From IMG/VR virus record IMGVR_UViG_3300025536_000011: DNA of 64,000 nucleotides. One strand, 5' to 3'. The stretch comes from a virus. The notes below the pieces were generated by a model. That model saw nothing but the letters and a program-made list of their open reading frames with translations. It ran no database searches and was not told where the DNA came from. A program made the translations under genes and the position numbers. Below, in pieces: positions 14,635-53,742 of this stretch (its first letter is position 1; each line of letters opens with the position of its first letter).

Positions 14635-14663
14635 CTAGGACGCCCGTTCTTCTCATTTTGAGA

Positions 14664-14861: not shown

Positions 14862-14933
14862 GATTTTCGCTCCGTTGCGGGCCGCACTATTGCGGCCCGA
14901 CAAAGAGTATATCGGCACGTTTCCCGAAAAGCT

Positions 14934-15200: not shown

Positions 15201-15201
15201 G

Positions 15202-15318: not shown

Positions 15319-15379
15319 CGTTGCTTCGCTCCGTTGCGTCGTCGGACGATTCCGAACGACGCAAAAGAATATCACGTTT

Positions 15380-15595: not shown

Positions 15596-15891
15596 GATGT
15601 CGAATCCTCTTGATCGGTTTTCAGGGAATATCCCTCAAGCCCCTTAACAGCTTGAGCGGCCGGATTAGAACGTAACCAAGTATCGGTGGATTCGCAAAGC
15701 CCGGAAGCGGGGCCATCGTCTCGAATGTCGGCCCGACCATACTGGCCACTGTCGAGATAGTGGCGACGGCCCGTCGGGCCGACTAGCACGACGGTTTCCT
15801 TATCCGGCCGACATTGGACGTATCGGCCGGATTCTAGCGTCCCAATGGGCCGCTCAAGAGCCGTCATGAGGGTAACGTTTCGGTATTCCAT
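15592..15891 (-). CDS. hypothetical protein
   Basis: GGAGCGAAGC upstream. Confidence 0.65.
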   Translation of the reverse strand: MEYRNVTLMTALERPIGTLESGRYVQCRPDKETVVLVGPTGRRHYLDSGQYGRADIRDDGPASGLCESTDTWLRSNPAAQAVKGLEGYSLKTDQEDSTS

Positions 15892-15939
15892 GTTAGCTTC
15901 GCTCCGTTTGCCGTCCCAACGGGAATTAACTTCGGCAAA

Positions 15940-15968
15940 AGAGTATCACGGGCTTTAGCCCGTGTCAA
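15940..15968 (-). promoter_or_regulatory. hairpin-spacer promoter
   Basis: TTGACACGGGCTAAAGCCCGTGATACTCT; stem CACGGGC/GCCCGTG. Confidence 0.8.
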
Positions 15969-15976
15969 ATAATTCT

Positions 15977-16237
15977 TTAAACCGTTTGGTAGCTTAGGAT
16001 TCGGCCCGAATACTTTGCAAATTTCGCCCGAAGCTTTCGGACGAGAATCACGTTTCCGTTTGGCATGAGCCTAACATGGGAACAGATACCATTTCCAAGG
16101 CCCATGAAATAGTCAATCCACGGCTGCCATACGTCGTCAGTAAAATCCCAAATACCGCGATTGCCGTCCGCACGGCACGCGAAAGCAATAGCTTTGTCGT
16201 GGTCGGCAAAACGACGACGATTGCGATTCGTCTTCAT
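15977..16237 (-). CDS. hypothetical protein
   Basis: ATG 16237, GGAG upstream. Confidence 0.6.
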   Translation of the reverse strand: MKTNRNRRRFADHDKAIAFACRADGNRGIWDFTDDVWQPWIDYFMGLGNGICSHVRLMPNGNVILVRKLRAKFAKYSGRILSYQTV

Positions 16238-16266
16238 GTTAGGGGCTCCGTTTACATTGACCGAAA

Positions 16267-16295
16267 AGAGTATCACGGCCCATGCGGGCCGTCAA
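16267..16295 (-). promoter_or_regulatory. hairpin-spacer promoter
   Basis: TTGACGGCCCGCATGGGCCGTGATACTCT; stem ACGGCCC/GGGCCGT. Confidence 0.8.
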
Positions 16296-16296
16296 A

Positions 16297-16527
16297 TCTC
16301 ATTTTGAGAGAAACGAATTCTCATTTTGAACGTGATATGGTTCATTCTGACGCAAATTCCTGAAAATCAATGATTTATAGGCAAATTGAACGTATTTCAG
16401 GAGTTATCGCATCGGCTGAAAGCCGAGCGATTCCGCACGGCAAGAATTGCCGATTGCACCAAAACGTGCATTCTCATTCTGAGAAACGTTACCGTTAGGT
16501 AACACTCAAATTGATTCTCAAAGTGAG
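16297..16527. repeat. cluster of TCTCA-N3-TGAGA palindromes in a non-coding gap
   Basis: perfect copies at about 16297, 16472, 16515, partial copies at about 16320 and 16503. Confidence 0.6.
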
Positions 16528-19631: not shown

Positions 19632-19663
19632 ATTTCGCTCCGCTTAATTTTAACTCCACTAAG

Positions 19664-19691
19664 AATATATCACTTCCTAGCAGATTGTCAA
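19664..19691 (-). promoter_or_regulatory. promoter of the repeated family
   Basis: TTGACA-16-TATATT. Confidence 0.65.
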
Positions 19692-19895
19692 GTTAATAAA
19701 ATAATCGGCCCGGATTGCTCCGGGCCGATGCCTTGTCCTAGCACGCTTTAGGCTATGCCAATATTTACTTTGCACTAAATACCGTCTAGGTCGATACTTA
19801 GCAGGGATTCATTCGCTCTTTACATATTTATATACATTGCCGGGAGAATCCTCATTTTAAGCTTCCGCTAAGCGGCTTATCCCTAAGACACTAAA

Positions 19896-19923
19896 AGCCT
19901 ATCACGCGGGCTTAGCTTGTCAA
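19896..19923 (-). promoter_or_regulatory. promoter whose -35 lies within an 11-bp hairpin
   Basis: CACGCGGGCTT-gacaagct-AAGCCCGCGTG-ATA on the minus strand. Confidence 0.65.
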
Positions 19924-20607
19924 GCCCGCGTGAACAAATCCCGTATTATCTTTCTTAGCACGGGCTTTCGGAGAAAGCCCGACGATACAAGGGCTTAAGT
20001 CCAAAAATCTTAGATCGTGGATATCGCCGTCTATAACGGCATAGCCGTTAAACCATTTAGGAATATCGTCTCGAAAGACGATAGCAACGTTAAACCCACG
20101 CTCAAGAGCCGCTTTGCATTCCAGCCAATTATTTTCGCTTGCCGAAAACGTCAAGTGATAATTAGTGGGCAAAGTATAGCCCGACTTGAGCCTATGCGAA
20201 AGCTTTGTATAGTCGTAGAATTGCAGTGTCGGGAATTCGGCAAAAATTTCCGGCATACGCTTTTCCCATACGATATCAGAAGTGCCGTTTAGCCTGATAG
20301 CGGGAATTAAACCTTGCCGCTTAGCGGCCCGCACAAGAGCCGCTAAATCGTTTCTAAGCAACGTTCGGAATTCTTCCGGCTTCTGGTACAAAAGCCGGGT
20401 TTTCCTCACGCGGGCCGCTTGCACGGGCCGATATTTCCCATATCCCGAGGTATTCAGGCAAGCGGCCCGACATCCGGCCGACGATTTTGGGCAGACGTTT
20501 CGCCCGCTCAAGCTTGCCGGTGCTAAGTGTAGGATAGCATTTAAATAGCCGAATGCCTTAGCCTTTTCTATCTTATGATTATCCAAAGTGATAAGGGCAA
20601 AGCCCAT
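19912..20607 (-). CDS. GP88-like phage protein (Cys-cluster, radical-SAM-like)
   Basis: VCPKSSAGCRAACLN..RLNGTSDI..FYDYTK..DGDIHDLRFLD. Confidence 0.7.
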   Translation of the reverse strand: MGFALITLDNHKIEKAKAFGYLNAILHLAPASLSGRNVCPKSSAGCRAACLNTSGYGKYRPVQAARVRKTRLLYQKPEEFRTLLRNDLAALVRAAKRQGLIPAIRLNGTSDIVWEKRMPEIFAEFPTLQFYDYTKLSHRLKSGYTLPTNYHLTFSASENNWLECKAALERGFNVAIVFRDDIPKWFNGYAVIDGDIHDLRFLDLSPCIVGLSPKARAKKDNTGFVHAGLTS

Positions 20608-20609
20608 AT

Positions 20610-20792
20610 TTATTCGCCCCCTTTGAATAACTTGATATAGAGCCCGACAATGCTAATAAGAATAACCCATAGCAGAGTCTCCCATATAACCCTAATGGGA
20701 TTTTCCAGCCCGTCCGAATCAAGCCCGGCCGCTTCATCGCGGCCGGGCTTAGTTCTACTCACGGAACGGGCGAACGCTCTGCCCCCGATCAC
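20610..20792 (-). CDS. small membrane protein
   Basis: C-terminal hydrophobic helix; ATGA overlap. Confidence 0.4.
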   Translation of the reverse strand: MIGGRAFARSVSRTKPGRDEAAGLDSDGLENPIRVIWETLLWVILISIVGLYIKLFKGGE

Positions 20793-21148
20793 GCGGGAAG
20801 AACCGCCCCGCTATTCTCGGGCACCGAATAATCGACTCCTCCAATGCGAAGTGTGAGGATACCTTCAACGGCGATAAAACGCCGATTCTTACTGGCATCA
20901 TCGGGATTATATCCCGAATCGCCGGGCATGAGATATACCATAATCAGCCCGTTAGCACCGGGCGAGAATCCCAACTTTCCGCCCTTGAGCCCCTTAGTGA
21001 CGTTTTCTGCCAGTCGGCAACGATATTCGCGTGCCGTATACTGGCCCGTTTCCTTATTCGGCGTTCGCGGCCGGACGATAGCAGAGAAAATCTTACCGTT
21101 AGTCGATCCAATAAGATTAACCGCCTGAACTTGCGAGATAACTTTCAT
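20789..21148 (-). CDS. hypothetical protein (possible SH3/Sm-like fold)
   Basis: ATG 21148 with GGAGCGAAGC; fold is a guess. Confidence 0.55.
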   Translation of the reverse strand: MKVISQVQAVNLIGSTNGKIFSAIVRPRTPNKETGQYTAREYRCRLAENVTKGLKGGKLGFSPGANGLIMVYLMPGDSGYNPDDASKNRRFIAVEGILTLRIGGVDYSVPENSGAVLPA

Positions 21149-21189
21149 TAGCTTCGCTCCAATTATGAGCCGCACAATCGCGGCCCATT

Positions 21190-21217
21190 AGGTTATCACG
21201 TTCTAGCCTACTGTCAA
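21190..21217 (-). promoter_or_regulatory. promoter of the repeated family fused to the arm of a 14-bp hairpin
   Basis: TTGACA-16-TAACCT; hairpin about 21215-21246. Confidence 0.65.
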
Positions 21218-21260
21218 GCCCGGCCGCACGATTGCGGCCGGGCTTGCGAGACTCCAAAGC

Positions 21261-22262
21261 TTAGCTGATTCCGGCCGCTTCGGCAAGGAAAGCCCAGGAC
21301 TGGGCCTCGAACTTTCCAGCCGTGCCCCCGAGAATACTTTCGAGCCGCTTTTCGGCCGTCCGATTGCCCTTATTACCAGCCCAGTTAGAGTTAAGATAGG
21401 TGATACCCTGGAAAATCGCCCCGAACGTCTCGGGCTTGCCAGCATAATTGATAGGATTGCGGGCCGCTCCGACGATACGTTCCGCGAGATTGATTTTCTG
21501 GGCCGAAACGTTATCCAAGTCGTTTCGGTCAATCCCGAGAAGCTTATCAACGGTAGACTCCACCGAAGCCGGGCAATCCATGAGAAGACCCAACTTTTCG
21601 GAATGAGCCGCAATTTCCTTCCGGGCCGCTTCCCAAGTCGCCCGAGCGAATTGGAGTTTATCCTTGATATCGCCCGTGTGACGGATCGAACCATCGGCAC
21701 CGCCACTAAAACCCGTCGTGATCGTATTATGGCAAACGACACGGTGCCGAACAAGCTTATAACGGATTGCGTTTCCGTCGTGAAAATTCTGGAAAACGAG
21801 ATAATTCTCATAGGGCGAAGTGTCGCCCGGCACGGAAAGAGCCGCATCGTTCCCATAATCGAGACGGAGGGCGATAACTTCGCTCTTTCCATCATAGAGA
21901 ACGAAAGCCGCATCGGTTGACCCAAAACCCTCGCGGGCGAAATAATCGAGAATCTCTGCCATATCGGCCGGATTGCACGGGCTATATCGCTCCGTAACCG
22001 TGGCGTCCGACAGAATGAATCCGTCGTCACTTCTTACGATATGGAATTGATTCGGAACTTCCGAGAACGTAGGACCATCCGGCCCAATAATACATTGATA
22101 GGCGGGCCGCTTCTCGACATTATAGCCGAGTCCAACAAGCTTAGCGAATTCACTAGGGACCGGGATTCGGCCGTTATCGTCCGGCTCGATAACCCGGCCC
22201 TTATTATGCCATGCGGCCCCTCGGGCATAGCCCGCTCGACTCTTGACTACCATATCGGCCAT
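21261..22262 (-). CDS. DUF932 family protein
   Basis: AAWHNKG..VRSDDG..Y.LVFQNFHDG..RVVCHNTI..IRHTG. Confidence 0.8.
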   Translation of the reverse strand: MADMVVKSRAGYARGAAWHNKGRVIEPDDNGRIPVPSEFAKLVGLGYNVEKRPAYQCIIGPDGPTFSEVPNQFHIVRSDDGFILSDATVTERYSPCNPADMAEILDYFAREGFGSTDAAFVLYDGKSEVIALRLDYGNDAALSVPGDTSPYENYLVFQNFHDGNAIRYKLVRHRVVCHNTITTGFSGGADGSIRHTGDIKDKLQFARATWEAARKEIAAHSEKLGLLMDCPASVESTVDKLLGIDRNDLDNVSAQKINLAERIVGAARNPINYAGKPETFGAIFQGITYLNSNWAGNKGNRTAEKRLESILGGTAGKFEAQSWAFLAEAAGIS

Positions 22263-22317
22263 TGTTATTTATCTCCGTTGGGCCGCACTATTGCAGCCCG
22301 CTTTTGAATTCGCTTGA

Positions 22318-22346
22318 ATCTTATCACGGCCCTTGCGGGCCGTCAA
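22318..22346 (-). promoter_or_regulatory. hairpin-spacer promoter
   Basis: TTGACGGCCCGCAAGGGCCGTGATAAGAT. Confidence 0.8.
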
Positions 22347-22348
22347 GT

Positions 22349-22555
22349 TTAATCGAGCGGAATCGCGTCGGGCAAATTATTGCCGGAAAGATTTTCCGGC
22401 CGATACCGAATAACATAACTGCCGTCGTTGCAGACATCATAACCCGAACACCGCTCGAAAATAACTCCGTTCCACGAAATACGCTTAGGATAAGCTTTAT
22501 CGACAATGTTTCGCGTCTCGAATCGCAATGCTCCAATAAAGGCGGCGGGCTTCAT
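22349..22555 (-). CDS. hypothetical protein
   Basis: ATG 22555, GGAGCTAAG upstream. Confidence 0.55.
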   Translation of the reverse strand: MKPAAFIGALRFETRNIVDKAYPKRISWNGVIFERCSGYDVCNDGSYVIRYRPENLSGNNLPDAIPLD

Positions 22556-22590
22556 ATTCTTAGCTCCGGCCGGATTATTCCGGCACCGAC

Positions 22591-22619
22591 AATCTATCAC
22601 TGCCCGACAGGGCAGTCAA
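22591..22619 (-). promoter_or_regulatory. hairpin-spacer promoter with covarying stem
   Basis: TTGACTGCCCTGTCGGGCAGTGATAGATT; stem ACTGCCC/GGGCAGT. Confidence 0.8.
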
Positions 22620-22849
22620 ATTTCTCTTGCAATATTATCACTTCGACGATAGGCGACACTACCAGTATCCGAATTGAACGCGGAGCGAACATAGGTCAAG
22701 CCCTGATATTCCAGGCACAACGGCAAGCTTGAAAAGCTTGCATAATCCCGACAGTCGATATCAGGATAGATGAAACTATCGCTCGAATCAAGATCGGCAA
22801 TGACAATCTTAATCGGCAGGGCTTCGATTCGCTTCGCAGTCGTTTCCAT
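22616..22849 (-). CDS. hypothetical protein, probably leaderless
   Basis: ATG 7 nt after -10; stop within the next -35. Confidence 0.65.
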   Translation of the reverse strand: METTAKRIEALPIKIVIADLDSSDSFIYPDIDCRDYASFSSLPLCLEYQGLTYVRSAFNSDTGSVAYRRSDNIAREI

Positions 22850-22855
22850 GCCACT

Positions 22856-22884
22856 AAGATATCACGGCCCGCAAGAGCCGTCAA
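22856..22884 (-). promoter_or_regulatory. hairpin-spacer promoter
   Basis: TTGACGGCTCTTGCGGGCCGTGATATCTT. Confidence 0.8.
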
Positions 22885-22938
22885 ATAAATCTAGCCTCTA
22901 CATATATAGACGGATCGAAAATATTTTCAGGCAGTCAC

Positions 22939-22966
22939 TTGACGGCATGAAATACCGTGATACTCT
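22939..22966 (+). promoter_or_regulatory. promoter of the repeated family
   Basis: TTGACG-16-TACTCT. Confidence 0.65.
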
Positions 22967-23029
22967 GCTAGTGTCAATCGGGCACCTTGACCAATCGGCC
23001 AATGGCTCGAAATGTCGCGTGCGGCTCGA

Positions 23030-23058
23030 TTGACGCGGCCCGGTTCGCCTGATACCGG
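23030..23058 (+). promoter_or_regulatory. possible degenerate promoter of the family
   Basis: TTGACG-17-TACCGG (weak -10). Confidence 0.35.
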
Positions 23059-23116
23059 AACGGTGCCGATTATTGGCGTGGCCGGGCGGATTATCAGGAA
23101 TTCGCCCGGATTTTCC

Positions 23117-23145
23117 TTGACGGCCCGCACGGGCCGTGATACTCT
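23117..23145 (+). promoter_or_regulatory. hairpin-spacer promoter
   Basis: TTGACGGCCCGCACGGGCCGTGATACTCT. Confidence 0.8.
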
Positions 23146-23157
23146 TCTCGTGAATTA

Positions 23158-23237
23158 GTCGCCCGCCTAACCTAGTATCGCTCAATTGGTAAAGCCAGCG
23201 AGAAAGGGAAGTCGCCCAGAGCGGCCAGGCGGGCGAC
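23158..23237 (+). ncRNA. candidate 80-nt structured RNA
   Basis: 11-bp closing stem 23158-68/23227-37; internal GCTCAATTGGTAAAGC resembles a tRNA D arm; upstream promoter. Confidence 0.45.
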
Positions 23238-23409
23238 ATTTTCTCATATTGACAACCTGTGCGATTTCGCACGGGTGCGTGCGTTTCCGCTCGGTCCCGC
23301 CGCCGCGTGCGTTCCCCCGGCCGGGCCGCCCGACGAGCCCCGAAACTAATAGTAAGGCATTTCGGGAGGCTCCTGAAAATTTCCCCCCGTAAGGGCGAAT
23401 CTCTCACTT

Positions 23410-23727
23410 CTAGTATTTTTGCGGCATCGCTGCAAAGTAAGGGAAAATCTCTTGCTTACGCGATTTTTGCGTAAAATATAGCCCCATGCTATTTTTCTGC
23501 ATCGGCCCGTCGTTCGAGTCGAAAACAATATGACGATTACAGCTACAGCGAGACGGCATAAGCTGCCGCTCAATCACACGCACCGTGCCGCAAGGGCATT
23601 GTGCCCGTACAACAGTCGCACGCCATACGTCGGCCCGCTTAGTGGCTTCCTCCACCATAACGTTAGGACGGCCGCTATTGATGTCCATAGCGGCCGTAAA
23701 GAGCCGGTCAAGATCACTCATATTCAT
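23410..23727 (-). CDS. Cys-containing hypothetical protein, probably leaderless
   Basis: CPCG..CSC; ATG 7 nt after -10. Confidence 0.6.
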   Translation of the reverse strand: MNMSDLDRLFTAAMDINSGRPNVMVEEATKRADVWRATVVRAQCPCGTVRVIERQLMPSRCSCNRHIVFDSNDGPMQKNSMGLYFTQKSRKQEIFPYFAAMPQKY

Positions 23728-23733
23728 GCTAGC

Positions 23734-23761
23734 AGTATATCACTCCCTAGTCGTGAGTCAA
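23734..23761 (-). promoter_or_regulatory. promoter of the repeated family
   Basis: TTGACT-16-TATACT. Confidence 0.7.
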
Positions 23762-31075: not shown

Positions 31076-31211
31076 AATAATCCTTCGTAAGAGGTTGAGC
31101 TACGCTGTAAATGCGGGCGATTGCTGCGAAAGCGGCAAACGTAAGACCCGCTGGCGGAGGCCGTTCCATTGGGCCGGGATTCCCCCGGCCCATCTATTAA
31201 CTAAATTATAT

Positions 31212-31339
31212 GCCCGTCAACCTAGTATTAGAATTCTAGGAAGAGACGCGAAAACGGACTTAAGTAGCGTCTTTGTAGCCATCTAGGCCCGGTTCGGGGT
31301 ACAATGGTTTACCCGGTGCAATTCCGGGGGCGGGCTCCA
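31212..31339 (+). ncRNA. 128-nt tRNA-like RNA (acceptor stem, T arm, CCA; expanded central arms)
   Basis: GCCCGTC/GGCGGGC, CCCGG-TGCAATT-CCGGG, TCCA end. Confidence 0.55.
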
Positions 31340-32212: not shown

Positions 32213-32383
32213 ATGCTTCCTTTTAAGGACCGTTGTAGCTTCGCTACAGATACGGAACGAAATGATTGGGATGAGGGTTATGACCATGCTGTTAATGGTG
32301 TAGACTTTGATGACGAATATGCAACTGACGCATATGCGGCAGGATACGATGCCGGTCTATATGATCTACGGGGCGACAAGTAG
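32213..32383 (+). CDS. 56-aa acidic protein absent from the ORF track (WDEGY..AYAAGYDAG)
   Basis: translated by hand; followed by a GC-rich hairpin. Confidence 0.55.
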   Translation: MLPFKDRCSFATDTERNDWDEGYDHAVNGVDFDDEYATDAYAAGYDAGLYDLRGDK

Positions 32384-32433
32384 TCGCCCCGTAAGGATTT
32401 ATCTGTCACTTCACGAAATTTTACGGGTTAGGC

Positions 32434-32461
32434 TTGACAGAAGCCGAACCCGTGTTATAAT
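32434..32461 (+). promoter_or_regulatory. extended -10 sigma70 promoter with -35 enclosed by a hairpin
   Basis: TTGACA-16-TATAAT with TG extension; ACGGGTT-A-GGCTT/AAGCC-G-AACCCGT. Confidence 0.8.
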
Positions 32462-32537
32462 GTTAATTAACTAAGGTCGCTCATCGTGAGCGTCCATGAC
32501 TAAAAGTAGGAAGTAAAAATACCCCATAGGAGATTTT

Positions 32538-33884: not shown

Positions 33885-35162
33885 TTGGCACAGAGACATT
33901 TTTTAATTAGATTCTTTCAAAAGGTTAATTTTAACACCAATAAATTCTGGGATGGAACAGAATGTTGGGAATGGAAGGGATCTAATGACTATTATTATGG
34001 ACATTTTTCTTTTAATGGTCGCCAAATCAAGACTCACAGATTCTCATATCAATATTTTGTAGATGAAGATTTAAAACCATATTTAGAGGTAGGACATTTA
34101 TGTAATAATACTTTGTGTCTAAGGCCATCACATTTAAAAGCAATGACTCCTAAAGAAAACGTACATTATAGCAATACTACTGCACATTTAAATTCCTTAA
34201 AAACCCACTGTAAGCACGGTCATGAATTTACTCCAGAAAATACATATATACGTAAGGATCGCAATGGCAATAGAGAGTGTATTACGTGTCATAGAATAGC
34301 AACAGGATATTGTGGCGGTATGCTAAATAGCGAAAAAACCCACTGTATTAATGGACACGAATTTACAGAAGAGAACACATACATATATAGCAAAAGTAAT
34401 TATCGAGCATGTAAGGCGTGTTCTAAAAATCGTTATCTACAAAAGAAGAGAAAAATGCAAATTTTAATTTTGGGAGACACGCACGGAAAGTATGATTTGG
34501 AGCATTTAATTATACAAAAAGTTATTAATAAAAATTCCAATATAAAAGCTATATTTCATTGCGGTGACTGGGGATATGCGTGGCCAACAAAATATGGTCC
34601 TGCTATTTGGGAGTATCCATTTAAAATACCATTCCATGTTACTTTAGGCAATCATGATCCATACTCATTCTATCAAACAGCAAAATTACCAGATTGGCTT
34701 CATATACAGGAACGTGGCAGTACATTAAATATTCATGGTAAAAAGATACTTTGGTGCGGTGGGGCATTTTCAATTGACCGTGCCTATCGTATCTTAAATC
34801 AAAGCTATTGGCTCGAAGAAACCATTAAACAGTCTGATCTTGATAAGTGCTTGGCTCAAGAAGGGCCAATTGATTTATTAGTAACTCACGAAACAGCAGA
34901 GTATTACCCTTTAAAAGCCAAGAGGCCGGAATTTACAGAAGGTAGATCGGATCGAATTGCTGTGCAAACAATAATAGATAAATTTAAACCTAAGTATCAT
35001 ACGTTTGGCCACTGGCATTCTCCTGATAATGGAGATTATATCCATCAAGATGGTAGTATAACTAAATGGGCCTGTATCCCCGAAGTAGATTCTGGGCACT
35101 TTGCCGTGTGGGATGGAGAGAATTTAGAGCTAAGCTGGCTTGACACGACCGGAAGGCCGTGA
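33885..35162 (+). CDS. HNH endonuclease fused in frame to a calcineurin-like metallophosphoesterase
   Basis: ECWEW..HRFSY..GHLCNN..C.RP.HL, two KTHC..GHEFT.ENTY repeats; from M at 34455 GDTHG, GDWG, GNHD, THE, GHWH. Confidence 0.85.
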   Translation: MAQRHFLIRFFQKVNFNTNKFWDGTECWEWKGSNDYYYGHFSFNGRQIKTHRFSYQYFVDEDLKPYLEVGHLCNNTLCLRPSHLKAMTPKENVHYSNTTAHLNSLKTHCKHGHEFTPENTYIRKDRNGNRECITCHRIATGYCGGMLNSEKTHCINGHEFTEENTYIYSKSNYRACKACSKNRYLQKKRKMQILILGDTHGKYDLEHLIIQKVINKNSNIKAIFHCGDWGYAWPTKYGPAIWEYPFKIPFHVTLGNHDPYSFYQTAKLPDWLHIQERGSTLNIHGKKILWCGGAFSIDRAYRILNQSYWLEETIKQSDLDKCLAQEGPIDLLVTHETAEYYPLKAKRPEFTEGRSDRIAVQTIIDKFKPKYHTFGHWHSPDNGDYIHQDGSITKWACIPEVDSGHFAVWDGENLELSWLDTTGRP

Positions 35163-35168
35163 TACGAT
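35140..35168 (+). promoter_or_regulatory. hairpin-spacer promoter (one mismatch)
   Basis: TTGACACGACCGGAAGGCCGTGATACGAT. Confidence 0.75.
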
Positions 35169-35184
35169 AATACTGTCAAAGAGC

Positions 35185-35320
35185 GGCTGCGGACCCTGGA
35201 GCGTTCCAGGGAACCGAAACGAAACTAACCCCCGACTGAATGCGGGAGACGACGAACGACTGGCGTGCCGGTTAGTGCTGTTCGCCAGTACCGGGAATTG
35301 ACCCGGCAGCCACTTTTTTT
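35185..35320 (+). ncRNA. candidate multibranch RNA with possible pseudoknot, ending in a T7 run
   Basis: closing GGCTG/CAGCC, four internal stems, ACTAACC/GGTTAGT long-range pair. Confidence 0.55.
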
Positions 35321-35341: not shown

Positions 35342-35539
35342 ATGCTTGAAACGATTCGCGGTGCCAGAATTAAAGTTGTGCCAGAGCAAGTTCGATATAT
35401 CCGTGCGAGCACGGAAACTCTCGAAATTTACCTTCTAGACACGAGCGAACCTGATTTCCATATCTATGAATGGGTGGCTCTTAAGAGTCACCAAAAAAAC
35501 TTTACCGCCCTAGTGGAGCTATTTAATGCGAGGCGATAA
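35342..35539 (+). CDS. hypothetical protein
   Basis: ATG 35342 after GAGCGAAG motif. Confidence 0.55.
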   Translation: MLETIRGARIKVVPEQVRYIRASTETLEIYLLDTSEPDFHIYEWVALKSHQKNFTALVELFNARR

Positions 35540-35684: not shown

Positions 35685-36137
35685 ATGTCCTTTAAGCGAA
35701 GCTTAATTATTATTCGTGGTCCATCAGGGTCCGGTAAAAGCACTATTGCACGCCACTTAGGCGGAATTGCGAAGCAAAATTGGTTCGAAGCAGATCAATT
35801 CTTTGAAAAGAACGGTCATTATGATTTCGACACTAAACGCCTTGGATTAGCTCATAAGTTTTGCCAGGAACAAACAAAAGCGGCAATGGAACACTGCGAA
35901 CCTATGATTATAGTGTCAAATACGTCTATGACTATAGCCGAGCTAACTCCGTATTTACAGGCTGCCGAGCAGTATGGCTACGCCGTTACTATCTATCGCA
36001 CGCCGAAACCGTGGCCGGTTGAGGCGTTGAAAGAGCGTAATAAGCATGGGGTGCCTTATCAAGTAATTGCGAAGCAAATAAACAAATACCAGGCTTCGCC
36101 TGGTGAGGTGGAATGGACCAACCTTTCTATATTCTAA
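35685..36137 (+). CDS. P-loop polynucleotide kinase-like protein (AAA_33)
   Basis: IIRGPSGSGKST..EADQFF..IVSNTS..RNKHGVP. Confidence 0.85.
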   Translation: MSFKRSLIIIRGPSGSGKSTIARHLGGIAKQNWFEADQFFEKNGHYDFDTKRLGLAHKFCQEQTKAAMEHCEPMIIVSNTSMTIAELTPYLQAAEQYGYAVTIYRTPKPWPVEALKERNKHGVPYQVIAKQINKYQASPGEVEWTNLSIF

Positions 36138-36575: not shown

Positions 36576-36590
36576 TTGCCCGGAGGGCAA

Positions 36591-37775
36591 ATGATAACTA
36601 ACCAAAAGCTAGAATTCTGGATCAAAAACAATTTAAACGTCCTATTTATAGGCAAACACGGGGTAGGCAAATCTGCTCGCGTTATTGATGCCTTTAATAA
36701 GGCAGGATTAAATTGGCTTTATTTTTCAGCGGCTACACTTGATCCTTGGGTAGATTTTATTGGTATCCCAAAAGAATGCACTGACGCCGAAGGCGTCAGG
36801 CATATTGATCTTATTAGGCCCAAGCAATTTGCCGAAGATAAAGTTGAAGCGATCTTTCTAGACGAGTTTAATCGGGCTCCTAAGAAAGTCCGAAACGCAG
36901 TTATGGAACTTATCCAGTTTAAATCTATTAACGGCAAGAAGTTCAATAACTTAAAGTTTATATGGGCGGCTATTAATCCAGAGGACGAGGACAATAAGTC
37001 CGAGTACGATGTTGAAAAACTCGACCCTGCTCAAAAGGACCGATTCCAAATTATCGTAGAAGTGCCATGGAAAGTCGATAGTGCATATTTTACCAGTAAA
37101 TTTGGCGATGAACTAGCTGGTAATGCTATAAATTGGTGGACTAATCTATCAAAGGAAGAACAAAATGGCGTGAGTCCACGTCGCTTAGAATACATAGTAG
37201 ACATTTACCAGCGAGGCGGTGACGTAAGAGACGTGGTGCCTAATAATATTAATATCAAAAAGCTGACTAAAGAACTTAGCGGCGAGTCGCCGCTAAGAGA
37301 ACTTGTTAAACTTTTTAAGACTAAAAATATTGCAACGGCAACCGCGTTTATCCGTGACTCGAACAATCTATCTGATTGTGAGAGTAAAATCCTCGAACAA
37401 TCGGCATATCTGGAATTCTTTTTTCCCCTTATGCAAGAAGAACAACAGGTCAGGCTGATATCTAATAATAAAAAAGTATATCAACACGTTGCTAATCATA
37501 TTGCTGATTATAGACCTCTCATCGAATCAATTACTAAAACTGATCCTTATTCGAAGCTTGGTCGCAAGATGCGGAGACTAATACAAGATCCTACGCCAGC
37601 TAATACTGGTAAATCAAGATACATTCTCGCAAATGAGTACCGTGCTTTAAGCGGCAAACACTTCAAGAGAACAAATGAAGAAATAATAAAAGGACTGTCT
37701 TATGGACAGGCTATTGAGGCTCGTATTGCCGCACTAAAGGCAGCAACTCAACCAGTGGCATTATATCGTGACTAA
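36591..37775 (+). CDS. MoxR-like AAA+ ATPase (module 1)
   Basis: GKHGVGKS, IFLDEFNR, WAAINP, LDPAQKDRF. Confidence 0.85.
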   Translation: MITNQKLEFWIKNNLNVLFIGKHGVGKSARVIDAFNKAGLNWLYFSAATLDPWVDFIGIPKECTDAEGVRHIDLIRPKQFAEDKVEAIFLDEFNRAPKKVRNAVMELIQFKSINGKKFNNLKFIWAAINPEDEDNKSEYDVEKLDPAQKDRFQIIVEVPWKVDSAYFTSKFGDELAGNAINWWTNLSKEEQNGVSPRRLEYIVDIYQRGGDVRDVVPNNINIKKLTKELSGESPLRELVKLFKTKNIATATAFIRDSNNLSDCESKILEQSAYLEFFFPLMQEEQQVRLISNNKKVYQHVANHIADYRPLIESITKTDPYSKLGRKMRRLIQDPTPANTGKSRYILANEYRALSGKHFKRTNEEIIKGLSYGQAIEARIAALKAATQPVALYRD

Positions 37776-39006
37776 CGAAGATTTCATTTTAATAGCTAGA
37801 GACTTAGAACAATATCACGGTATCTTTTCTAAGATTTGGCAGATTGGAAAGCCACATTTTACAGAAGATATTCCTACTGCGGCAGTAAGTTTTAATAAGG
37901 ATGGTCAGTATATAGATTTCCAGTTTAATCCCAAGTTTTGGGCAAAATCTTCTCATTATGAGAGGCTTTTTATCATCTGTCACGAGTGCCTACACGTTAT
38001 ACTTAATCACGGGTTGAGGCTCGCGGGGCTTAATCCAGAGCTAGGCAACATAGCTGCTGACGTGGTTATTAATGAGGGTTTAGTGAGTAACTTAGGTTTT
38101 GATAGGAGCCGACTAGGCTCTTTAAACAAAAAAGGATGCTGGCTAAACACAGTTTTTACGGGCGAAGATGTCGAGCCCGCAAAATCAATGGAGTATTATT
38201 ATAATTTGCTAAAAGAAGATATATTACAAAAGTTGGCTACCGGCCAATTAGTATTGATAGATCAACATGCCGGTTTATCCGGCATAGATGTTTCAGGCTT
38301 AGTTGATTCATTAAATCCAAGCGATAAAGAAAGTTTAGGTCGCTTGTTCCAGGCAATAAAAGACGAAACAGAAGCGTGCGAAAGTGTCTCTGCCGGAAGC
38401 GTAGCGGGCTCACTCGCCATAACAATTCGCCTGGACAAAGTCCAGGTGAAACGTAAATGGGAGACTGTTATTAAGAAATGGGCTCTTAAAAGTATGAAAG
38501 AATCTGATCGTGAAGTGTCTCAATGGACCCGTGTGAATAGAAGATTCGCAGCGATTACAAGCGATTTAATACTTCCAACGGAAGTAGTCATCGAAGATAC
38601 TAACGACGAGCAGGATAAGATTAAAGTTGTATTTTTTCAGGATACATCAGGAAGCTGTCACGGTTTCGCCAAGCGTTTCTTTGCGGCGGCAAAATCACTA
38701 CCGCAAGATAGATTTGATATAGAATTATACTGTTTTGATACGAGAGTATATAAAACTTCGCTTGAGTCTGGTAAGCTATATGGCTTTGGCGGGACATCAT
38801 TTGATATCTTAGAACGATACGTTATGACTCAAATTGCTAAAAACGATTCGCGTCAGTATCCAAAGGCAATTTTCGTCATTACGGACGGCTACGGCAATAA
38901 AATTAATCCAATTAAACCTAAAAATTGGTACTGGTTTTTGTCGAGCAGTTATAAAAGTTGTATTCCAGATGCGTGTAATATTTTTCAATTAAGGGATTTT
39001 GAATAA
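37768..39006 (+). CDS. HExxH metallopeptidase-like plus vWA domain protein (DUF2201-like, module 1)
   Basis: HECLHVILNH..NIAAD..IN; DTSGS, GFGGTSF, VITDGY. Confidence 0.85.
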   Translation: MTNEDFILIARDLEQYHGIFSKIWQIGKPHFTEDIPTAAVSFNKDGQYIDFQFNPKFWAKSSHYERLFIICHECLHVILNHGLRLAGLNPELGNIAADVVINEGLVSNLGFDRSRLGSLNKKGCWLNTVFTGEDVEPAKSMEYYYNLLKEDILQKLATGQLVLIDQHAGLSGIDVSGLVDSLNPSDKESLGRLFQAIKDETEACESVSAGSVAGSLAITIRLDKVQVKRKWETVIKKWALKSMKESDREVSQWTRVNRRFAAITSDLILPTEVVIEDTNDEQDKIKVVFFQDTSGSCHGFAKRFFAAAKSLPQDRFDIELYCFDTRVYKTSLESGKLYGFGGTSFDILERYVMTQIAKNDSRQYPKAIFVITDGYGNKINPIKPKNWYWFLSSSYKSCIPDACNIFQLRDFE

Positions 39007-39297
39007 ATGGTCATTATATTCCCATCCGGCTATGGGCTTTATAGGATATGCACTAAATCTCAAGGCTGGCTTGGCCCGATACGGGCCAATAATATGCGGT
39101 GGCTTTACGCTACAGAAATTAATGGCACTAGAGATGTTGTGATTTTAAGGCAGACGAACCCCTGGACCAAACATGCCAAAGCATGTGGGGATTTCAGTAA
39201 GACTTACTTTGATCTAATGTTAGATGAACGAGTAATTTGGACGTGTGACTACTCTGACATGTTATGTTATATTTCGAGGGACGAAAATGCAGGATAA
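39007..39297 (+). CDS. hypothetical protein
   Basis: ORF in run. Confidence 0.45.
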   Translation: MVIIFPSGYGLYRICTKSQGWLGPIRANNMRWLYATEINGTRDVVILRQTNPWTKHAKACGDFSKTYFDLMLDERVIWTCDYSDMLCYISRDENAG

Positions 39298-39790
39298 AGA
39301 CATATTTCTTCTAGCTATAGAGCATCATGCAATTATGCAACTAGCTGGTAGATTTATGTCTAAGATCAATACTAAATCAGGTATATTCGGAGAAAATGGA
39401 GATTACCCAACAGAATGCTGGATTTGGACTGATACGCCTAATACAGATGGTTATGGAGTTTTTAGTATTGATAATAAAAATACTGGAGCCCATAGGATTG
39501 CATATAAGGTATTTAATGGTCCATTGATAGACGGTTATGAAATAGATCATTTATGTCGTAGACGAGATTGTGTATGTCCAGATCATTTAGAACAAATCAC
39601 AGGTCCAGAAAACGTAAGGCGTGGCAAATCTGGAGAATATAATAGAATAAAAACGCATTGTCACAAAGGACATGAGTTTACAACAGAAAATACTTACGTC
39701 TATATTAGAGACGGACTAATAGAAAGGCAATGTAGAACATGCAAAAGAGAGACGCAAATTGCATATAGGAAAAGAAAACATGAATTATAG
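39245..39790 (+). CDS. HNH homing endonuclease, paralog of the 33885 N-terminus
   Basis: ECWIW..GYG..AHRIAY..IDHLCRRRDCV.PDHLE..EN; KTHCHKGHEFT.ENTY. Confidence 0.85.
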   Translation: MTTLTCYVIFRGTKMQDKDIFLLAIEHHAIMQLAGRFMSKINTKSGIFGENGDYPTECWIWTDTPNTDGYGVFSIDNKNTGAHRIAYKVFNGPLIDGYEIDHLCRRRDCVCPDHLEQITGPENVRRGKSGEYNRIKTHCHKGHEFTTENTYVYIRDGLIERQCRTCKRETQIAYRKRKHEL

Positions 39791-40415
39791 TATAATAATG
39801 GCTCTGATACAAAAAGCGGATAAGCCGTCCGATGTTTTTCTGCACAATTCTTTTGTAATAGAAATTCCAGAATTATATACGTTGCAAGGAATCCCTCAAC
39901 CAGCAAAATATCACCCCGAGGGGGACGCATTCGTTCATACTTTACAAGTAATAGATAGAGCCAAAGAATTAGGAGGCAATGATATAACTATATTCTCATG
40001 TTTACTACACGATCTTGGCAAAGCTTTGACTCCAAAAGAAGAATGGCCGCACGCCTATAATCACGAGTCCTTGGGCTTGCCAATAGCTGCAAAGATTTGC
40101 GAGCGTCTGAATGTTCCAATAGAACATCGTGACTTTGTACTTAATGTTGTTGCTGAACATGGAAATGCTCATCGGTTCCTTGAAATGAGACCCACCACAC
40201 GAGTTAAGTTCTTGAAAAGAATATGGCTATGCAATCTATACGATTTTACTCTGGCTTGCAAGGCTGATTCGCAGGGCAGAGGCGAAGAAAACTGGTTGCG
40301 GGAATACCCGCAAAGTGAAGCCATTATGGATGCGGCTCGCCGCATCGGTAAAATAGAAATAGCTGGCAAAAGCCACGAAAAGTGGCTACAGGAGGCAGCA
40401 AAAGCAATATCGTGA
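39780..40415 (+). CDS. stand-alone HD phosphohydrolase resembling the HD domain of multifunctional CCA enzyme
   Basis: PQPAKYHPEGDAFVHTLQV..LLHDLGKA.TP..HE..CKADSQGR. Confidence 0.8.
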   Translation: MNYSIIMALIQKADKPSDVFLHNSFVIEIPELYTLQGIPQPAKYHPEGDAFVHTLQVIDRAKELGGNDITIFSCLLHDLGKALTPKEEWPHAYNHESLGLPIAAKICERLNVPIEHRDFVLNVVAEHGNAHRFLEMRPTTRVKFLKRIWLCNLYDFTLACKADSQGRGEENWLREYPQSEAIMDAARRIGKIEIAGKSHEKWLQEAAKAIS

Positions 40416-40572: not shown

Positions 40573-40601
40573 TTGACACGGCCTAATGGCCGTGATATCG
40601 T
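40573..40601 (+). promoter_or_regulatory. hairpin-spacer promoter
   Basis: TTGACACGGCCTAATGGCCGTGATATCGT. Confidence 0.8.
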
Positions 40602-40692
40602 GTAAGTGCCAGATGCGTGGACGGTCGGTCGTGAAGGTGGACCATGCCGGGCGGTAAATCGAGCCGCCCGGCAATTTAATTGGAGCTAACAA

Positions 40693-41097
40693 ATGCCTGA
40701 AATAGTAATTATAAATGATGCTGGGCAATTCTGGAATGGCGAGTCTTATTCGCCGGAAATTAATGATGCACGCACCTATACCGATAGGTCACTAGCTATT
40801 GGGCTTGCATCGGCTCGTAAGGGCCGAGCCATCATTGGCCACGGCACTAGCGAGCAACGCGAGCTAGGCAACGTACCGGCTCCTGAGCCTAATCCTGCGG
40901 CAGTGGCCGCAGTGGAAGCCACGGCGGCAGCCGTAGAGCGTGTCCAAGCAGCCTTCGATGTTGGCCAGCTTACATTGGACAATTACGAGGATTTAATGGA
41001 CGAACGATTCCGCTTAACTAAAGCGGAAAAATTGAGTGGCATTAGCCGCGAAGAGGCTTTACGTGCCCGTATTAAAAAGGGACTTATTAAACTATGA
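40693..41097 (+). CDS. hypothetical protein with Ala-rich linker; C-terminal domain shared with 32759-32929
   Basis: LTLDNYEDLMDERFRLTKAEKLSGISREEAL. Confidence 0.65.
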   Translation: MPEIVIINDAGQFWNGESYSPEINDARTYTDRSLAIGLASARKGRAIIGHGTSEQRELGNVPAPEPNPAAVAAVEATAAAVERVQAAFDVGQLTLDNYEDLMDERFRLTKAEKLSGISREEALRARIKKGLIKL

Positions 41098-42323
41098 AAA
41101 CAACACTCTATCAGCTTAAAAAGACTGGCAAAATCTGGCAATGGTCCTGTTGGGCACAAGGCCCAAAAGTTTATACTAGTTATGGCTATGTAGATGGTGC
41201 CCAACAAGAAACGCACGAAACTGCTACCGCCGTAAACGTCGGAAAATCTAACGAAGTTTCTCCTGTCGAACAAGCTCGACTCATCGCGGAGCGAAAGATT
41301 AAAGAGAAACTGGAAAATGGATATGCTCGCTCCCCGAGCGAAGCCAAACTAGAGCCCGAAGGGCTCGACTATGATAACTTGCCGAAGGCGTTTACGCCAG
41401 CGAAACCGATTTCGTCGATTGACGAAGCAAAGCTTCGGAAATTATTTGACGCTGGAAATTTGAGCGTGCAGAGAAAATATGATGGCTGCTGCCTTCTTGC
41501 CGTGCGGGGATCAAGCGGTATTAAATTACTGACCAGAGGGAAGTTAGAGGATAAAACAGGACACTTCCCACAAATTGTGAATGAGCTAAAAGATATTCCC
41601 GTTGGTACAATTCTGGTTGGCGAATTAATCGGGCAGAATTTTAAGACTGTCACAAGCATCTTACGCTCCAAAGATCCCCATGACGCTCTAGAGAAGCAAA
41701 GAGAAGCCGGTAGGCTGAGCTACATGATTTTTGATGTTCTGCATTGGGACGGAGAAGATATTACTTCGTGGCCATATAATAATCGTATAAATAAAATATT
41801 GGCTCACCTTGATGATAAAGATAATCCTTGTGTCCAAGTGACACATAATTTACTCGACTATAATAGTTACGACGAGCTATTCGGTAAAATCAATATCGCC
41901 ATAGTGAGAGGCTACGAGGGATACGTTTGTTGGCAGCTAGACGCACCGACTAAGGTGCGACTAGACGGCAAAGAGGAGCGTACCGGAGCCTGGAAATGGA
42001 AAATAACGCATAGCGAAGATGTTTGGGCCGAATGCCCGACCGAAGGGAAGGGCAAGAACGAAGGCAAGTTAGGACAAGTTAAGGGCTATCAATTTTCGCC
42101 TACTGGCGAAAAAGTGTATGTCGGTGATATCGGGGGCGGCTACTCAAACGAAGAAAGGCTTGCCTTTTGGCAGCAACGTGATACACTATTCCCATGCGTC
42201 ATTGAGATCGAAACTTCTTCCCGCCTAATAAGCGGAAAATTACAATTTCCCGTCTTTGTCAGGCTGCGTCCCGATAAGACGGAAGCAGAATGCCTTATGC
42301 AACTTGAATATAAGGGAGATTAA
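41094..42323 (+). CDS. ATP-dependent DNA ligase
   Basis: VQRKYDG, ILVGEL, IFDVL, GYEG, WKWK, OB-fold VG..GGGYS..FPVF..LRPDK. Confidence 0.9.
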   Translation: MKTTLYQLKKTGKIWQWSCWAQGPKVYTSYGYVDGAQQETHETATAVNVGKSNEVSPVEQARLIAERKIKEKLENGYARSPSEAKLEPEGLDYDNLPKAFTPAKPISSIDEAKLRKLFDAGNLSVQRKYDGCCLLAVRGSSGIKLLTRGKLEDKTGHFPQIVNELKDIPVGTILVGELIGQNFKTVTSILRSKDPHDALEKQREAGRLSYMIFDVLHWDGEDITSWPYNNRINKILAHLDDKDNPCVQVTHNLLDYNSYDELFGKINIAIVRGYEGYVCWQLDAPTKVRLDGKEERTGAWKWKITHSEDVWAECPTEGKGKNEGKLGQVKGYQFSPTGEKVYVGDIGGGYSNEERLAFWQQRDTLFPCVIEIETSSRLISGKLQFPVFVRLRPDKTEAECLMQLEYKGD

Positions 42324-48151: not shown

Positions 48152-48350
48152 GTGAAGTGACTGGCGTGGCCGGACAGCGGCCAATAGTATCTTGCCGAGA
48201 GCCGCTTGGGGTTCGTGGGCATTAAAAGTAAAGCTACCAAGATATGTCGGTGACATCTGGATTTAGTTTAACGGAAGAACGCCGCCCATGAGGTTGGAAA
48301 TGTGGGTTCGAATCCCGCAACGCCAGATTAGACCGATACAGTCACTTCAC
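48152..48350 (+). ncRNA. candidate 199-nt structured RNA with an embedded tRNA-like domain
   Basis: 12-bp closing helix; D arm and canonical T arm at 48257-48326; degenerate anticodon arm, no CCA. Confidence 0.6.
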
Positions 48351-51822: not shown

Positions 51823-52421
51823 GCGAACCGAATATTCTAAAGCCACAAGTACGCACTCGTTATAACGAGAAACTCGGGAAAACTATGAAGCACTCGGCAA
51901 CGTTTCGATTCAATATTAGCAATCTTAATGACATTGCCCGAGAATTCGGAGTAACAAAAACTAACGAGAAGGCCACCACCATTGTTAAAGGATGCCAGGC
52001 TGTCGGTAACGCCGATATTGCGGCTAAACTGATTGGTCGTCGATTCTTAGTTGATACTTCTGGCCGGGAACTCCCCGCGTGCGTTGGACACTTCGATGAT
52101 TTAACGGTCAGCATAGCCGATAGTTTTAGCCCGACTTATGATAACGAGCTATTCGAGACCGATCTTACCGGATCAGTTTTTGAAGCTATTAAATATAAAC
52201 TATTGCTGAAAGCAATCGCTCTTTATGGCAAGCTTCTGCACGCTAATGCTAAAGATGATAAACTTATGACATTCGAAGTTATGTCAGAGCCAGTCGGCGG
52301 CGGATTAATCGAAGCACTATTCCAGAGTGGCACTTCTGAAACTCCAATTGATATCTCACTTACAGAAATCACAAACTTTAAACTAATGGAGCAGGAAACA
52401 AATGAAGTTTCACCTTCGTAA
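51819..52421 (+). CDS. hypothetical protein upstream of AAA module 2
   Basis: coupled ORF. Confidence 0.65.
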   Translation: MSEPNILKPQVRTRYNEKLGKTMKHSATFRFNISNLNDIAREFGVTKTNEKATTIVKGCQAVGNADIAAKLIGRRFLVDTSGRELPACVGHFDDLTVSIADSFSPTYDNELFETDLTGSVFEAIKYKLLLKAIALYGKLLHANAKDDKLMTFEVMSEPVGGGLIEALFQSGTSETPIDISLTEITNFKLMEQETNEVSPS

Positions 52422-53742
52422 TTTTGTCCACGGGTATGACGAAATCGAGCCATGTATTTTTGCGGCTATTGCATTACGCCGTAATGTTTTCATGAGCGGG
52501 GCTCACGGTATTGGTAAGTCGAGCCTGGGTAAGCTTCTTGCCAAAGCAATCGACGAAACAGGTAATGGCTTCCGTTATTTCTCTGCCGATAAAGCAAATA
52601 TTATCACACTTGGAGGCTTGCCTGATATCGAAGCCACTAAAAAGTCTGGCACAATGGCTTTCGCCAAGACAGATAAATGTCTTTGGGGAGCCAAAATCAT
52701 CCTTGCGGACGAACTTCCGCGAGCAGACAAAGAGCGTCAGAATTATTGGCTTGAGATTTGCGAGGAAAAATCTTTTCAGGGTATCCCAATTGGCTATGAA
52801 ACTTTAATTGCCACTGGCAACGACGTTACTTATAAAGGCAATTTCGATATTGATGCGGCTCTTGCGAGTCGCTTCTTGTTCTGGCTGCCTACTCCTAAGT
52901 TTGATGATATTCAGTCCGAAGATGTCCGAGCAATGATTGCACTTAATATTGGTGATCGTAGAGATATGGCAAAGACGGCTCATGAGATTCGTGACCTTAT
53001 CCAATTAATGCGTGATAAGATTGCAGAATATTTCAAGAATGAAAAGTTAGTTGAGCAGACATCTACATTCATTGGCGTTTTCACTCAATGGATTAAAGAG
53101 AAGATTTCCTATAATAAGGAACTTGCTGAGAATCCTGAATCATATGTCTCTCCGCGAGAGTTCGCTAATCAGCTAATCCATGCTATCTTTGGGCTTAATG
53201 CTTATTATGATCTACATGGTTATGAGAATTCCCTGCAAGAAGCAGGAGCTAAAGCTATTAAGTACGTTATCGAAACTCGTCACGCTGCCGCTGGCGTAGA
53301 GTTTACTAATATTTGCAATATGGCCTGGAAGCAACTACAGGGAATGCTTTGTACGAAACTGGACACGCCCGAGGGCAATCTCAAGTGGCTCTTTGCCGCA
53401 AGTATTACTCCTAGCCAGAAGGTTAGTTTCTGGCGAGAGTATATTGGCGAAGCTGTAAAAGTCCTTGGTGCTGGAGACTTAACCTATATGACGGGCGAAA
53501 CTTTAAACCAGATCCGGGGCGACGATATCCAGCAAATTGGCCCGTTCTGGCACATTATGATGAAGGACGATAAGACAAAGCACATAGGTCGAGAGATCGA
53601 GGGCTTCCTGGTGAGCGAAATCGCACGCAAACTTCTCACCGGCAAAGCTGCTGGTCCTGGTAACGAAGAATTCACTCTTTATAACAAGTATGGTAATGTT
53701 GAAACGCTATCACCTAGCGAGGTAGCAGAAATCCTAAAATGA
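52402..53742 (+). CDS. MoxR/RavA-like AAA+ ATPase (module 2)
   Basis: GAHGIGKS, ILADELPR, IATGN, DAALASRF. Confidence 0.85.
   Translation: MKFHLRNFVHGYDEIEPCIFAAIALRRNVFMSGAHGIGKSSLGKLLAKAIDETGNGFRYFSADKANIITLGGLPDIEATKKSGTMAFAKTDKCLWGAKIILADELPRADKERQNYWLEICEEKSFQGIPIGYETLIATGNDVTYKGNFDIDAALASRFLFWLPTPKFDDIQSEDVRAMIALNIGDRRDMAKTAHEIRDLIQLMRDKIAEYFKNEKLVEQTSTFIGVFTQWIKEKISYNKELAENPESYVSPREFANQLIHAIFGLNAYYDLHGYENSLQEAGAKAIKYVIETRHAAAGVEFTNICNMAWKQLQGMLCTKLDTPEGNLKWLFAASITPSQKVSFWREYIGEAVKVLGAGDLTYMTGETLNQIRGDDIQQIGPFWHIMMKDDKTKHIGREIEGFLVSEIARKLLTGKAAGPGNEEFTLYNKYGNVETLSPSEVAEILK

Follow-up and report, generated by a model that had tools for sequence, protein, structure and literature searches.

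Between the gene for an HNH-metallophosphoesterase fusion and the operon that follows it, the phage DNA analysed here carries 146 nt that fold strongly behind an early promoter, which raises the question of whether this element is an RNA gene, a regulatory leader of the operon or an inert insert. The window, i.e., the whole 64,000-nt stretch that was analysed, corresponds to bases 127-64126, read on the minus strand, of an IMG/VR virus record that is 177,274 bases long, has an estimated completeness of 75% and was assembled from a subsurface metagenome in which the phage is very abundant (depth ~1173). The mean GC content of the phage is 39.8% (SD 6.3 in 120-nt windows). Two blocks of 50-69% GC occur within this 40% GC phage, at 13990-16300 and 20280-23740; they are rich in minus-strand promoter copies and small ORFs, and the proteins noted with them include a DUF932 protein (21261-22262) and a GP88-family protein (19912-20607). 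The genes flanking the element are as follows.

33885-35162, plus strand: HNH-metallophosphoesterase fusion, upstream of the element
35342-35539, plus strand: ORF B (65 aa), the first protein gene 3' of the element, 54% identical to ORF B of a sister phage
35685-36137, plus strand: AAA_33/polynucleotide-kinase-like protein
36576-37775, plus strand: MoxR-type AAA protein
37768-39006, plus strand: DUF2201/vWA protein
39245-39790, plus strand: HNH endonuclease
39759-40415, plus strand: HD protein, matching the C-terminal part of tRNA nucleotidyltransferases
41094-42323: ATP-dependent DNA ligase

RNA-handling genes are plentiful around the element; two RNA ligases, one Rnl2-like and one T4 gp63 (Rnl1)-like, are encoded farther along the phage, which also carries seven tRNA genes. 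The annotation bears out the original prediction in placing the element upstream of kinase, MoxR-AAA, vWA and HD genes. The fusion of an HNH N-terminal domain with a calcineurin-like phosphoesterase (412-429 aa) is kept in three phage lineages (window 33885-35162, L002:4260-5498 and L024:5910-7199), which argues for a stable fusion and not for a recent homing-endonuclease insertion. ORF B is preceded by a weak SD-like GAAGAG, and a search for its relatives in a 5.8-billion-protein database matched ORF B itself only.

The element lies directly behind a promoter, and the limits of a transcript can be predicted on both sides.

35140-35168, plus strand: phage early promoter, consisting of TTGACA, a 17-nt spacer and a TG-extended -10 (TACGAT) that ends at 35168
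35175-35320, plus strand: predicted transcript of ~146 nt (58% GC), from G35175, a start placed by promoter geometry, to the end of the U-run

The promoter spacer holds an imperfect hairpin, and the HNH-phosphoesterase gene upstream ends within the promoter, with its TGA stop at 35160-62. This promoter, already proposed in the original prediction, proved to be real: its motif, TTGAC-N12-16-TGNTA, is present in 34 copies in the window against 2.4 expected by chance, and the copy at 35140 is conserved in the sister phage (L002 5487-5513). The predicted start, G35175, lies 7 nt past the -10 and 3 nt ahead of a closing helix, P1, whose 3' strand, CAGCC-A-C (in the region 35307-13), runs straight into U7 (35314-20). 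The start and the end of the predicted transcript coincide with the ends of one closed five-helix domain. P1 and U7 together are terminator-like; the stem encloses a 117-nt multibranch loop, and the first five U's also pair with AAAGA. Since the "loop" of such a terminator is 117 nt, the site at 35314-20 is not called by a simple terminator scan. No credible ORF covers the element, in agreement with its earlier description as ORF-free: the overlapping ORFs have only 46-54 codons, one of them starting at the -35 TTG, and none of the three overlapping frames was found as a called protein in a 15-billion collection. A small peptide was rejected, the sole internal ATG opening 11 codons without an SD. 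An RNA from the minus strand is disfavoured by the promoter, the U-run and all the neighbouring genes, which are on the plus strand, folding energy being non-discriminating in this respect.

Folding with RNAfold gave a minimum free energy (MFE) of -60.6 kcal/mol, and pair probabilities are 0.72-1.0 for all helices. The predicted stems GGCTG/CAGCC, CCCTGGA/TCCAGGG, CCCG/CGGG, ACTGGCG/CGCCAGT and CCGGG/CCCGG, followed by T7, were all recovered in place, and P1 is lengthened by AAAGAG (35178-83) pairing with CUUUUU (35313-18). The parts of the fold are listed below.

35178-35189, plus strand: 5' strand of P1 (AAAGAG, C, GGCUG), with partner 35307-35318 and pair probabilities of 0.72-1.0; the core is GGCTG 35185-89/CAGCC 35307-11
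35190-35216, plus strand: P2 hairpin in the MFE fold (CGG-A-CCCUGGA, loop GCGU, UCCAGGG-AA-CCG); the core, CCCTGGA 35194-200/TCCAGGG 35205-11, is extended by CGG/CCG
35217-35230, plus strand: J2/3, an A-rich single strand, AAACGAAACUAACC, in which the final 7 nt, 35224-30, would supply the 5' strand of a possible pseudoknot
35231-35246, plus strand: P3 hairpin (CCCG 35231-34, loop ACUGAAUG, CGGG 35243-46)
35247-35258, plus strand: J3/4, a purine-rich single strand, AGACGACGAACG
35259-35289, plus strand: P4 hairpin (ACUGGCG 35259-65/CGCCAGU 35283-89) with a 17-nt loop, L4, containing GGUUAGU 35270-76 (3' strand of the pseudoknot) and UGCCGG 35266-71 (alternative pairing)
35291-35306, plus strand: P5 hairpin (CCGGG 35291-95, loop AAUUGA, CCCGG 35302-06)
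35307-35320, plus strand: 3' strand of P1 (CAGCC-A-C), then U7 (35314-20)

The five helices are closed by a 12-bp helix between the two ends of the predicted transcript. As read from the sequence, the junctions are A- or purine-rich, and the helices are GC-rich and almost free of mismatches. In stepwise folding of the growing transcript, P2, P3, P4 and P5 appear in order, and the 5' strand of P1 stays essentially free until its partner is made, at which point P1 adds 11.4 kcal/mol; no competitor for this strand was found in the stepwise folds.

Compared with shuffles of its own dinucleotides, the element has a z of -4.1, and 0 of 200 shuffles fold as well. Among the 1277 150-nt windows of the stretch, its raw folding energy ranks 13th, and its rank after regression of energy on GC is 97th. 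Thirteen of 76 GC-matched windows (53-62% GC) fold as well or better, and the reverse strand is nearly equal (-59.3 kcal/mol, z -3.2). Once corrected for GC, the stability of the element is unremarkable for its own genome. The lowest energies for GC content in the whole window are found at 57975-58124, 32325-32474, 59375-59524 and 7075-7224; these four 150-nt windows, most of them inside ORFs, deviate from the regression by 3.0-3.8 SD towards lower energy, farther than the element does.

These values bear on the reading that the element is inert, i.e., a GC-rich foreign fragment caught in a promoter-mediated exchange that deleted a protein gene, ORF A, and, with its fold unselected, doing no more than terminate leakily or stabilise a 5' end. 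Such an insert would show the ordinary stability among GC-matched windows and the strand-symmetric folding energy described above. Its composition, ~3 SD off the phage mean, is as expected of recently acquired DNA, and the element is unique to one genome, the closest relatives being without it. On the other hand, the z of -4.1 was obtained against shuffles that preserve its own dinucleotide content, and the boundaries of the fold coincide with transcription signals, the helix beginning 3 nt past the predicted start and ending in the U run. The A-rich junctions and the clean helices with almost no mismatches also speak against an inert fragment, as does the lack of a donor sequence in the phage, plasmid, genome and metagenome collections searched. 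On balance, an inert insert is considered somewhat unlikely. The structure seems plausible and tidy, of which thermodynamics alone is no proof.

A second reading takes the element as a cis-acting leader or attenuator, which would set transcription from 35140 into the 5-kb operon or switch it in response to a ligand or protein. In this device, P1 and U7 would be the terminator, the pseudoknot between L4 and J2/3 would leave this terminator on, and the pairing of L4 with CCGGCA would turn it off. After promoter 35140, the next promoter of the family is at 40573. Therefore, the downstream 5 kb must be expressed by read-through, and the predicted terminator is probably partial; given the weak SD-like GAAGAG and the promoterless 5 kb, the element cannot be a strong terminator without harming the operon. 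This dependence on read-through favours an attenuator, as do the sister phage, in which the same promoter drives the operon directly, and promoter 40573, where a structured leader of 86 nt with a terminal 11-bp hairpin likewise lies between promoter and ORF. Two competing complements of L4 do exist, as originally proposed. The pseudoknot, ACTAACC 35224-30 with GGTTAGT 35270-76, is a 7-bp duplex of -10.5 kcal/mol, and the alternative, UGCCGG 35266-71 with CCGGCA 35303-08, is a bare duplex of -11.7 kcal/mol. However, the pseudoknot energy is matched in 9% of within-loop base shuffles, so that the pseudoknot lacks significance on its own terms, and the alternative pairing relies on the palindromic CCGG and forces a fold of -48.0 instead of -60.6 kcal/mol (12.6 kcal/mol worse). 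In addition, the 5' strand of P1 is never sequestered in stepwise folding, no Rfam riboswitch matches even at E <=10, and a conserved aptamer is absent in all the relatives; an aptamer limited to one phage lineage would be unusual. The proposed switch looks weak in these models, and an attenuator of this design is judged unlikely.

Comparison with related phages shows what occupies the same place elsewhere. Homologs of the kinase are numerous and lie on phage contigs of 150-180 kb; one is close (72% identity) and belongs to a 181-kb Logan contig, the sister phage. The sister retains the HNH-phosphoesterase gene and the promoter (TTGACG...GTGATATCAT), and an ATG exactly 7 nt past the -10 opens a leaderless 67-aa ORF A (L002 5520-5720), whose stop overlaps the start of ORF B (TAATG). 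The same stretch, L002:5487-5920, is also present in L027 and L028. Similarity between the window and the sister is lost from the start site onwards and picks up again ~15 nt ahead of the ORF B start codon (ATG), so that the 146-nt element fills exactly the slot of ORF A. A third and more distant relative (L024/L025), with a phosphoesterase 44% identical, has a 70-aa ORF A homolog (L024:7196-7402; 27.5% identity, E 1e-4) directly after the phosphoesterase gene, with no intergenic gap. The presence of an ORF A homolog at the same place there implies that ORF A is ancestral and that the RNA is a derived replacement in the lineage of the window. Judging from these alignments, the RNA appears to have replaced a protein gene as a cassette. 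A relationship of the sister ORF A to DUF551-like proteins was not borne out by Pfam. The possibility that the element is an intron in ORF B was rejected as well, as the upstream sequence of the sister belongs to a separate gene read in a different frame and the window has no exon 1.

The operon differs between the two phages at another point. The MoxR-AAA/vWA pair and the HNH gene (window 36576-39790) are missing in the sister (L027:5878-7769), which has three small ORFs (213, 122 and 119 aa) in their place; this is another cassette-level difference in the same operon. A second MoxR/vWA-like pair is kept in both phages (window 52402-55595; L029:12340-16143).

Searches for a second copy or a known family found neither. 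Rfam 15 at gathering score gave only tRNAs over the window, and with the element alone at E <=10 the best matches had E values of 0.8-6.5 and 11-16 bits against cut-offs of 36-90, in line with the statement in the original prediction that the family was not recognised. ARAGORN found no tRNA or tmRNA in the element at default or 80% thresholds and only noise at 70%; a tRNA-like identity was rejected, as no tRNA-like shape or domain was detected by this program. A single-sequence covariance model of the element (R1; self-score 195 bits) and blastn had the element as their sole match in the 177-kb record of the phage, and R1 detected nothing in 25 loci or in 17 related IMG/VR records searched in full. 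With filters off, R1 reached at best 11 bits, versus 195 for the element, in 69 kb of the sister (contig 103,818-173,045) that are the counterpart of almost the whole window. Blastn for distant matches against cultured phages and plasmids gave 24-30-nt chance matches at E = 5. Pattern scans of viral, metagenome and genome contig collections were empty, both exact and degenerate; the patterns covered the P2 hairpin, the pseudoknot, L3 with junctions and the L4 loop, and needed 19-25 conserved positions. These scans would miss relatives as far off as the sister, and the searches overall would catch near-identical or moderately diverged copies. With the kinase or the phosphoesterase as a single-protein anchor, no related loci were retrieved from the viral contig collection, and the only sequencing run containing the element is the probable source sample. 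In particular, no riboswitch aptamer conserved across lineages was found in the relatives, the phage's own genome, the 25 loci, the 17 records, the 69 kb of the sister, phages, plasmids or the pattern scans. The collection of homologs for covariation, proposed earlier as a check, thus yielded none in any collection searched, and the fold is accordingly unsupported by covariation or signs of selection; the source-sample contigs showed no variants at a depth of ~1173, and so no population-level covariation.

The other copies of the promoter offer a comparison within the phage. At most of the 34 promoters, an ORF begins 0-50 nt downstream, and several of these ORFs are leaderless. Long ORF-free gaps occur mostly behind promoters of RNA genes, namely 31047 (a folded RNA at 31083-31339, then a tRNA-like RNA), 48119 (a 200-nt RNA at 48152-48350, then tRNA-Glu and tRNA-Gly) and 50942 (tRNA-Arg next). 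By analogy, the 168-nt gap after promoter 35140 would belong to this long-gap, RNA-gene class. Paralogy of the element with the other promoter-proximal RNAs was rejected, since there is no significant sequence similarity; the best local match, to the 48152 RNA, is 15 nt long (p 0.017 before correction for five comparisons). Three promoter-proximal stretches stood out. After promoter 31047, a GC-rich RNA-like stretch of ~130 nt (window 31076-31215; fold -51 kcal/mol, z -2.6) ends with a 9-bp hairpin, GGGCCGGG(G)/CCCCGGCCC, upstream of the tRNA-like element at 31212 and tRNA-Leu. The GC-rich leader of promoter 40573 (window 40573-40692; 86 nt, fold z -2.3) ends in its 11-bp hairpin (40645-40673) plus AUUUAAUU, immediately 5' of the RBS and ATG 40693, and may be a simpler version of the layout of promoter, structure and ORF. 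Behind the minus-strand promoter copy 19923 (window 19640-19923), ~200-260 nt carry no ORF of >=35 codons up to copy 19691; the minus strand of 19640-19923 may be another non-coding cassette.

Several known systems resemble this arrangement in part. In T4-type phages, recombination between repeated early promoter/stem-loop units, the PeSL cassettes, swaps the genes in between (PMC2839356, PMC4122927). The phage described here likewise has many copies of one strong sigma70-like early promoter with a hairpin in a plastic early region, and the content behind a shared promoter is swapped between related phages (ORF A versus RNA) with the next gene kept. Both signs of PeSL-type exchange were found, namely the 34 promoter copies and a window and sister (L002) that share the promoter and ORF B and differ in the content between them. 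In contrast to PeSLs, which swap protein ORFs, the swapped-in content is a 146-nt non-coding folded RNA, and the hairpin lies inside the promoter spacer instead of beside the promoter.

The tRNA region of T4 encodes the small stable RNAs C and D. Like these and the phage's own RNAs at 31083-31339 and 48152-48350, the element is a non-coding, GC-rich folded RNA that opens a transcription unit right behind an early promoter, in a large phage with tRNA genes; unlike them, it has no tRNA-like domain, does not adjoin tRNA genes and has its own terminal U-run.

Bacterial Y RNAs and YrlA RNAs are ~100-150 nt long, have a structured module on a long closing helix made of the paired 5' and 3' ends, and are found in RNA-repair or RNA-decay gene neighbourhoods, some of them in phages (PMC4201824). 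The size of the element, its end-pairing closing helix and its RNA-repair-type gene neighbourhood are similar to those of YrlA, whereas the enclosed domain is a five-helix junction without tRNA features. No Ro60/TROVE gene (PF05731) was detected in the 177-kb record, which is ~75% complete, by a search that matched control genomes. Identity as a Y RNA was therefore rejected on three grounds: no TROVE gene, no Rfam Y RNA match and no tRNA-like module.

Riboswitches and attenuators share with the element a structured leader between promoter and operon, a stem plus U-run, and a possible pseudoknot and an alternative pairing that overlap the terminator strand; they differ in that its terminator stem also closes the entire domain and is not a separate expression-platform hairpin, and no family match or conservation was found. 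The 6S RNA of lambda is a short transcript made from the constitutive promoter pR' and terminated at tR', just upstream of an operon that needs read-through, in a Q-linked system. The element is similarly a short terminated transcript ahead of an operon needing read-through, but its structure is far more elaborate than a terminator requires. By this analogy, the promoter-proximal RNA might be the by-product of an antitermination device in which a phage factor lets polymerase past the terminator at the right time. The layout of promoter, short structured transcript, U-run and operon fits such a device; however, the sister runs the same operon without one, and the leaders at the other promoters of the family are mostly short, making antitermination very improbable.

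Of the two alternatives in the original prediction, a stand-alone small RNA or a riboswitch-like attenuator, the former gained support from the ORF A slot in two relatives and from the long-gap promoters, which mostly drive RNA genes, and the latter was left unsupported. Most probably, a genuine discrete transcript is made from the element, as suggested by the conserved promoter, a predicted start and terminator bracketing a closed domain, a distribution of GC and A like that of structured RNAs, the replacement of a gene by a cassette and the similarly placed RNA genes. Its interpretation as a small RNA gene peculiar to its lineage, placed as a cassette at the start of an early operon, is given a probability of roughly 45%. 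Counted against this interpretation are the lack of a homolog in the collections searched, the GC-corrected rank of 97 among 1277 windows, the near-equal fold of the reverse strand, a terminator whose stem closes a 117-nt multibranch loop, which is unusual, and the dependence of the operon on read-through, which leaves no room for strong termination. Because read-through is needed and the terminator is probably partial, the RNA-gene and attenuating-leader readings overlap and are not exclusive.

If the element is a small RNA gene, transcription would start at G35175, and hairpins P2 to P5 would form successively. The emerging CAGCC-AC would then close P1, which with U7 would act as an intrinsic terminator and release a compact RNA with both ends protected. 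A fraction of polymerases would read through and allow expression of ORF B, the kinase, MoxR-AAA, vWA, HNH and HD proteins, as expected from the lack of another family promoter before 40573. The cassette may have been acquired via recombination at the repeated promoter, as in the PeSL cassettes of T4-type phages (PMC2839356, PMC4122927). The most speculative step is that the released RNA would act in trans as a protein-binding or decoy RNA within an uncommonly rich RNA repertoire of the phage, which includes seven tRNAs, two RNA ligases, at least two further structured RNAs close to promoters, and kinase, phosphoesterase and HD enzymes. From this context, our guess is that the RNA might bind or decoy proteins of an RNA-repair or defence interface. 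It is doubtful whether the element founds a new class of phage-encoded structured RNA, released by its own closing-helix terminator and acting with, or protecting against, RNA-targeting activities. As such, it would serve the neighbouring repair enzymes (kinase, phosphoesterase, HD and ligase) as their partner or scaffold, or act as a decoy for host RNA-cleaving defence, with the J2/3-L4 pseudoknot as the recognition surface.

The element is a candidate for a new RNA with a single member, within a known category, the phage-encoded small structured RNAs. Large phages with many tRNAs and RNA-repair enzymes are increasingly seen to encode folded RNAs, and this phage has at least three folded RNAs behind copies of one promoter. 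As the promoter is of the sigma70 type, the RNA, if made and stable, would be tractable for expression in E. coli and a search for partners; if it is not made or not stable, the element would be a warning that GC-rich DNA inserted into AT-rich phages gives impressive folds as a matter of course. The swap of a non-coding RNA for a protein gene at a fixed promoter slot suggests that RNA genes travel as early-gene cassettes, as ORFs do.
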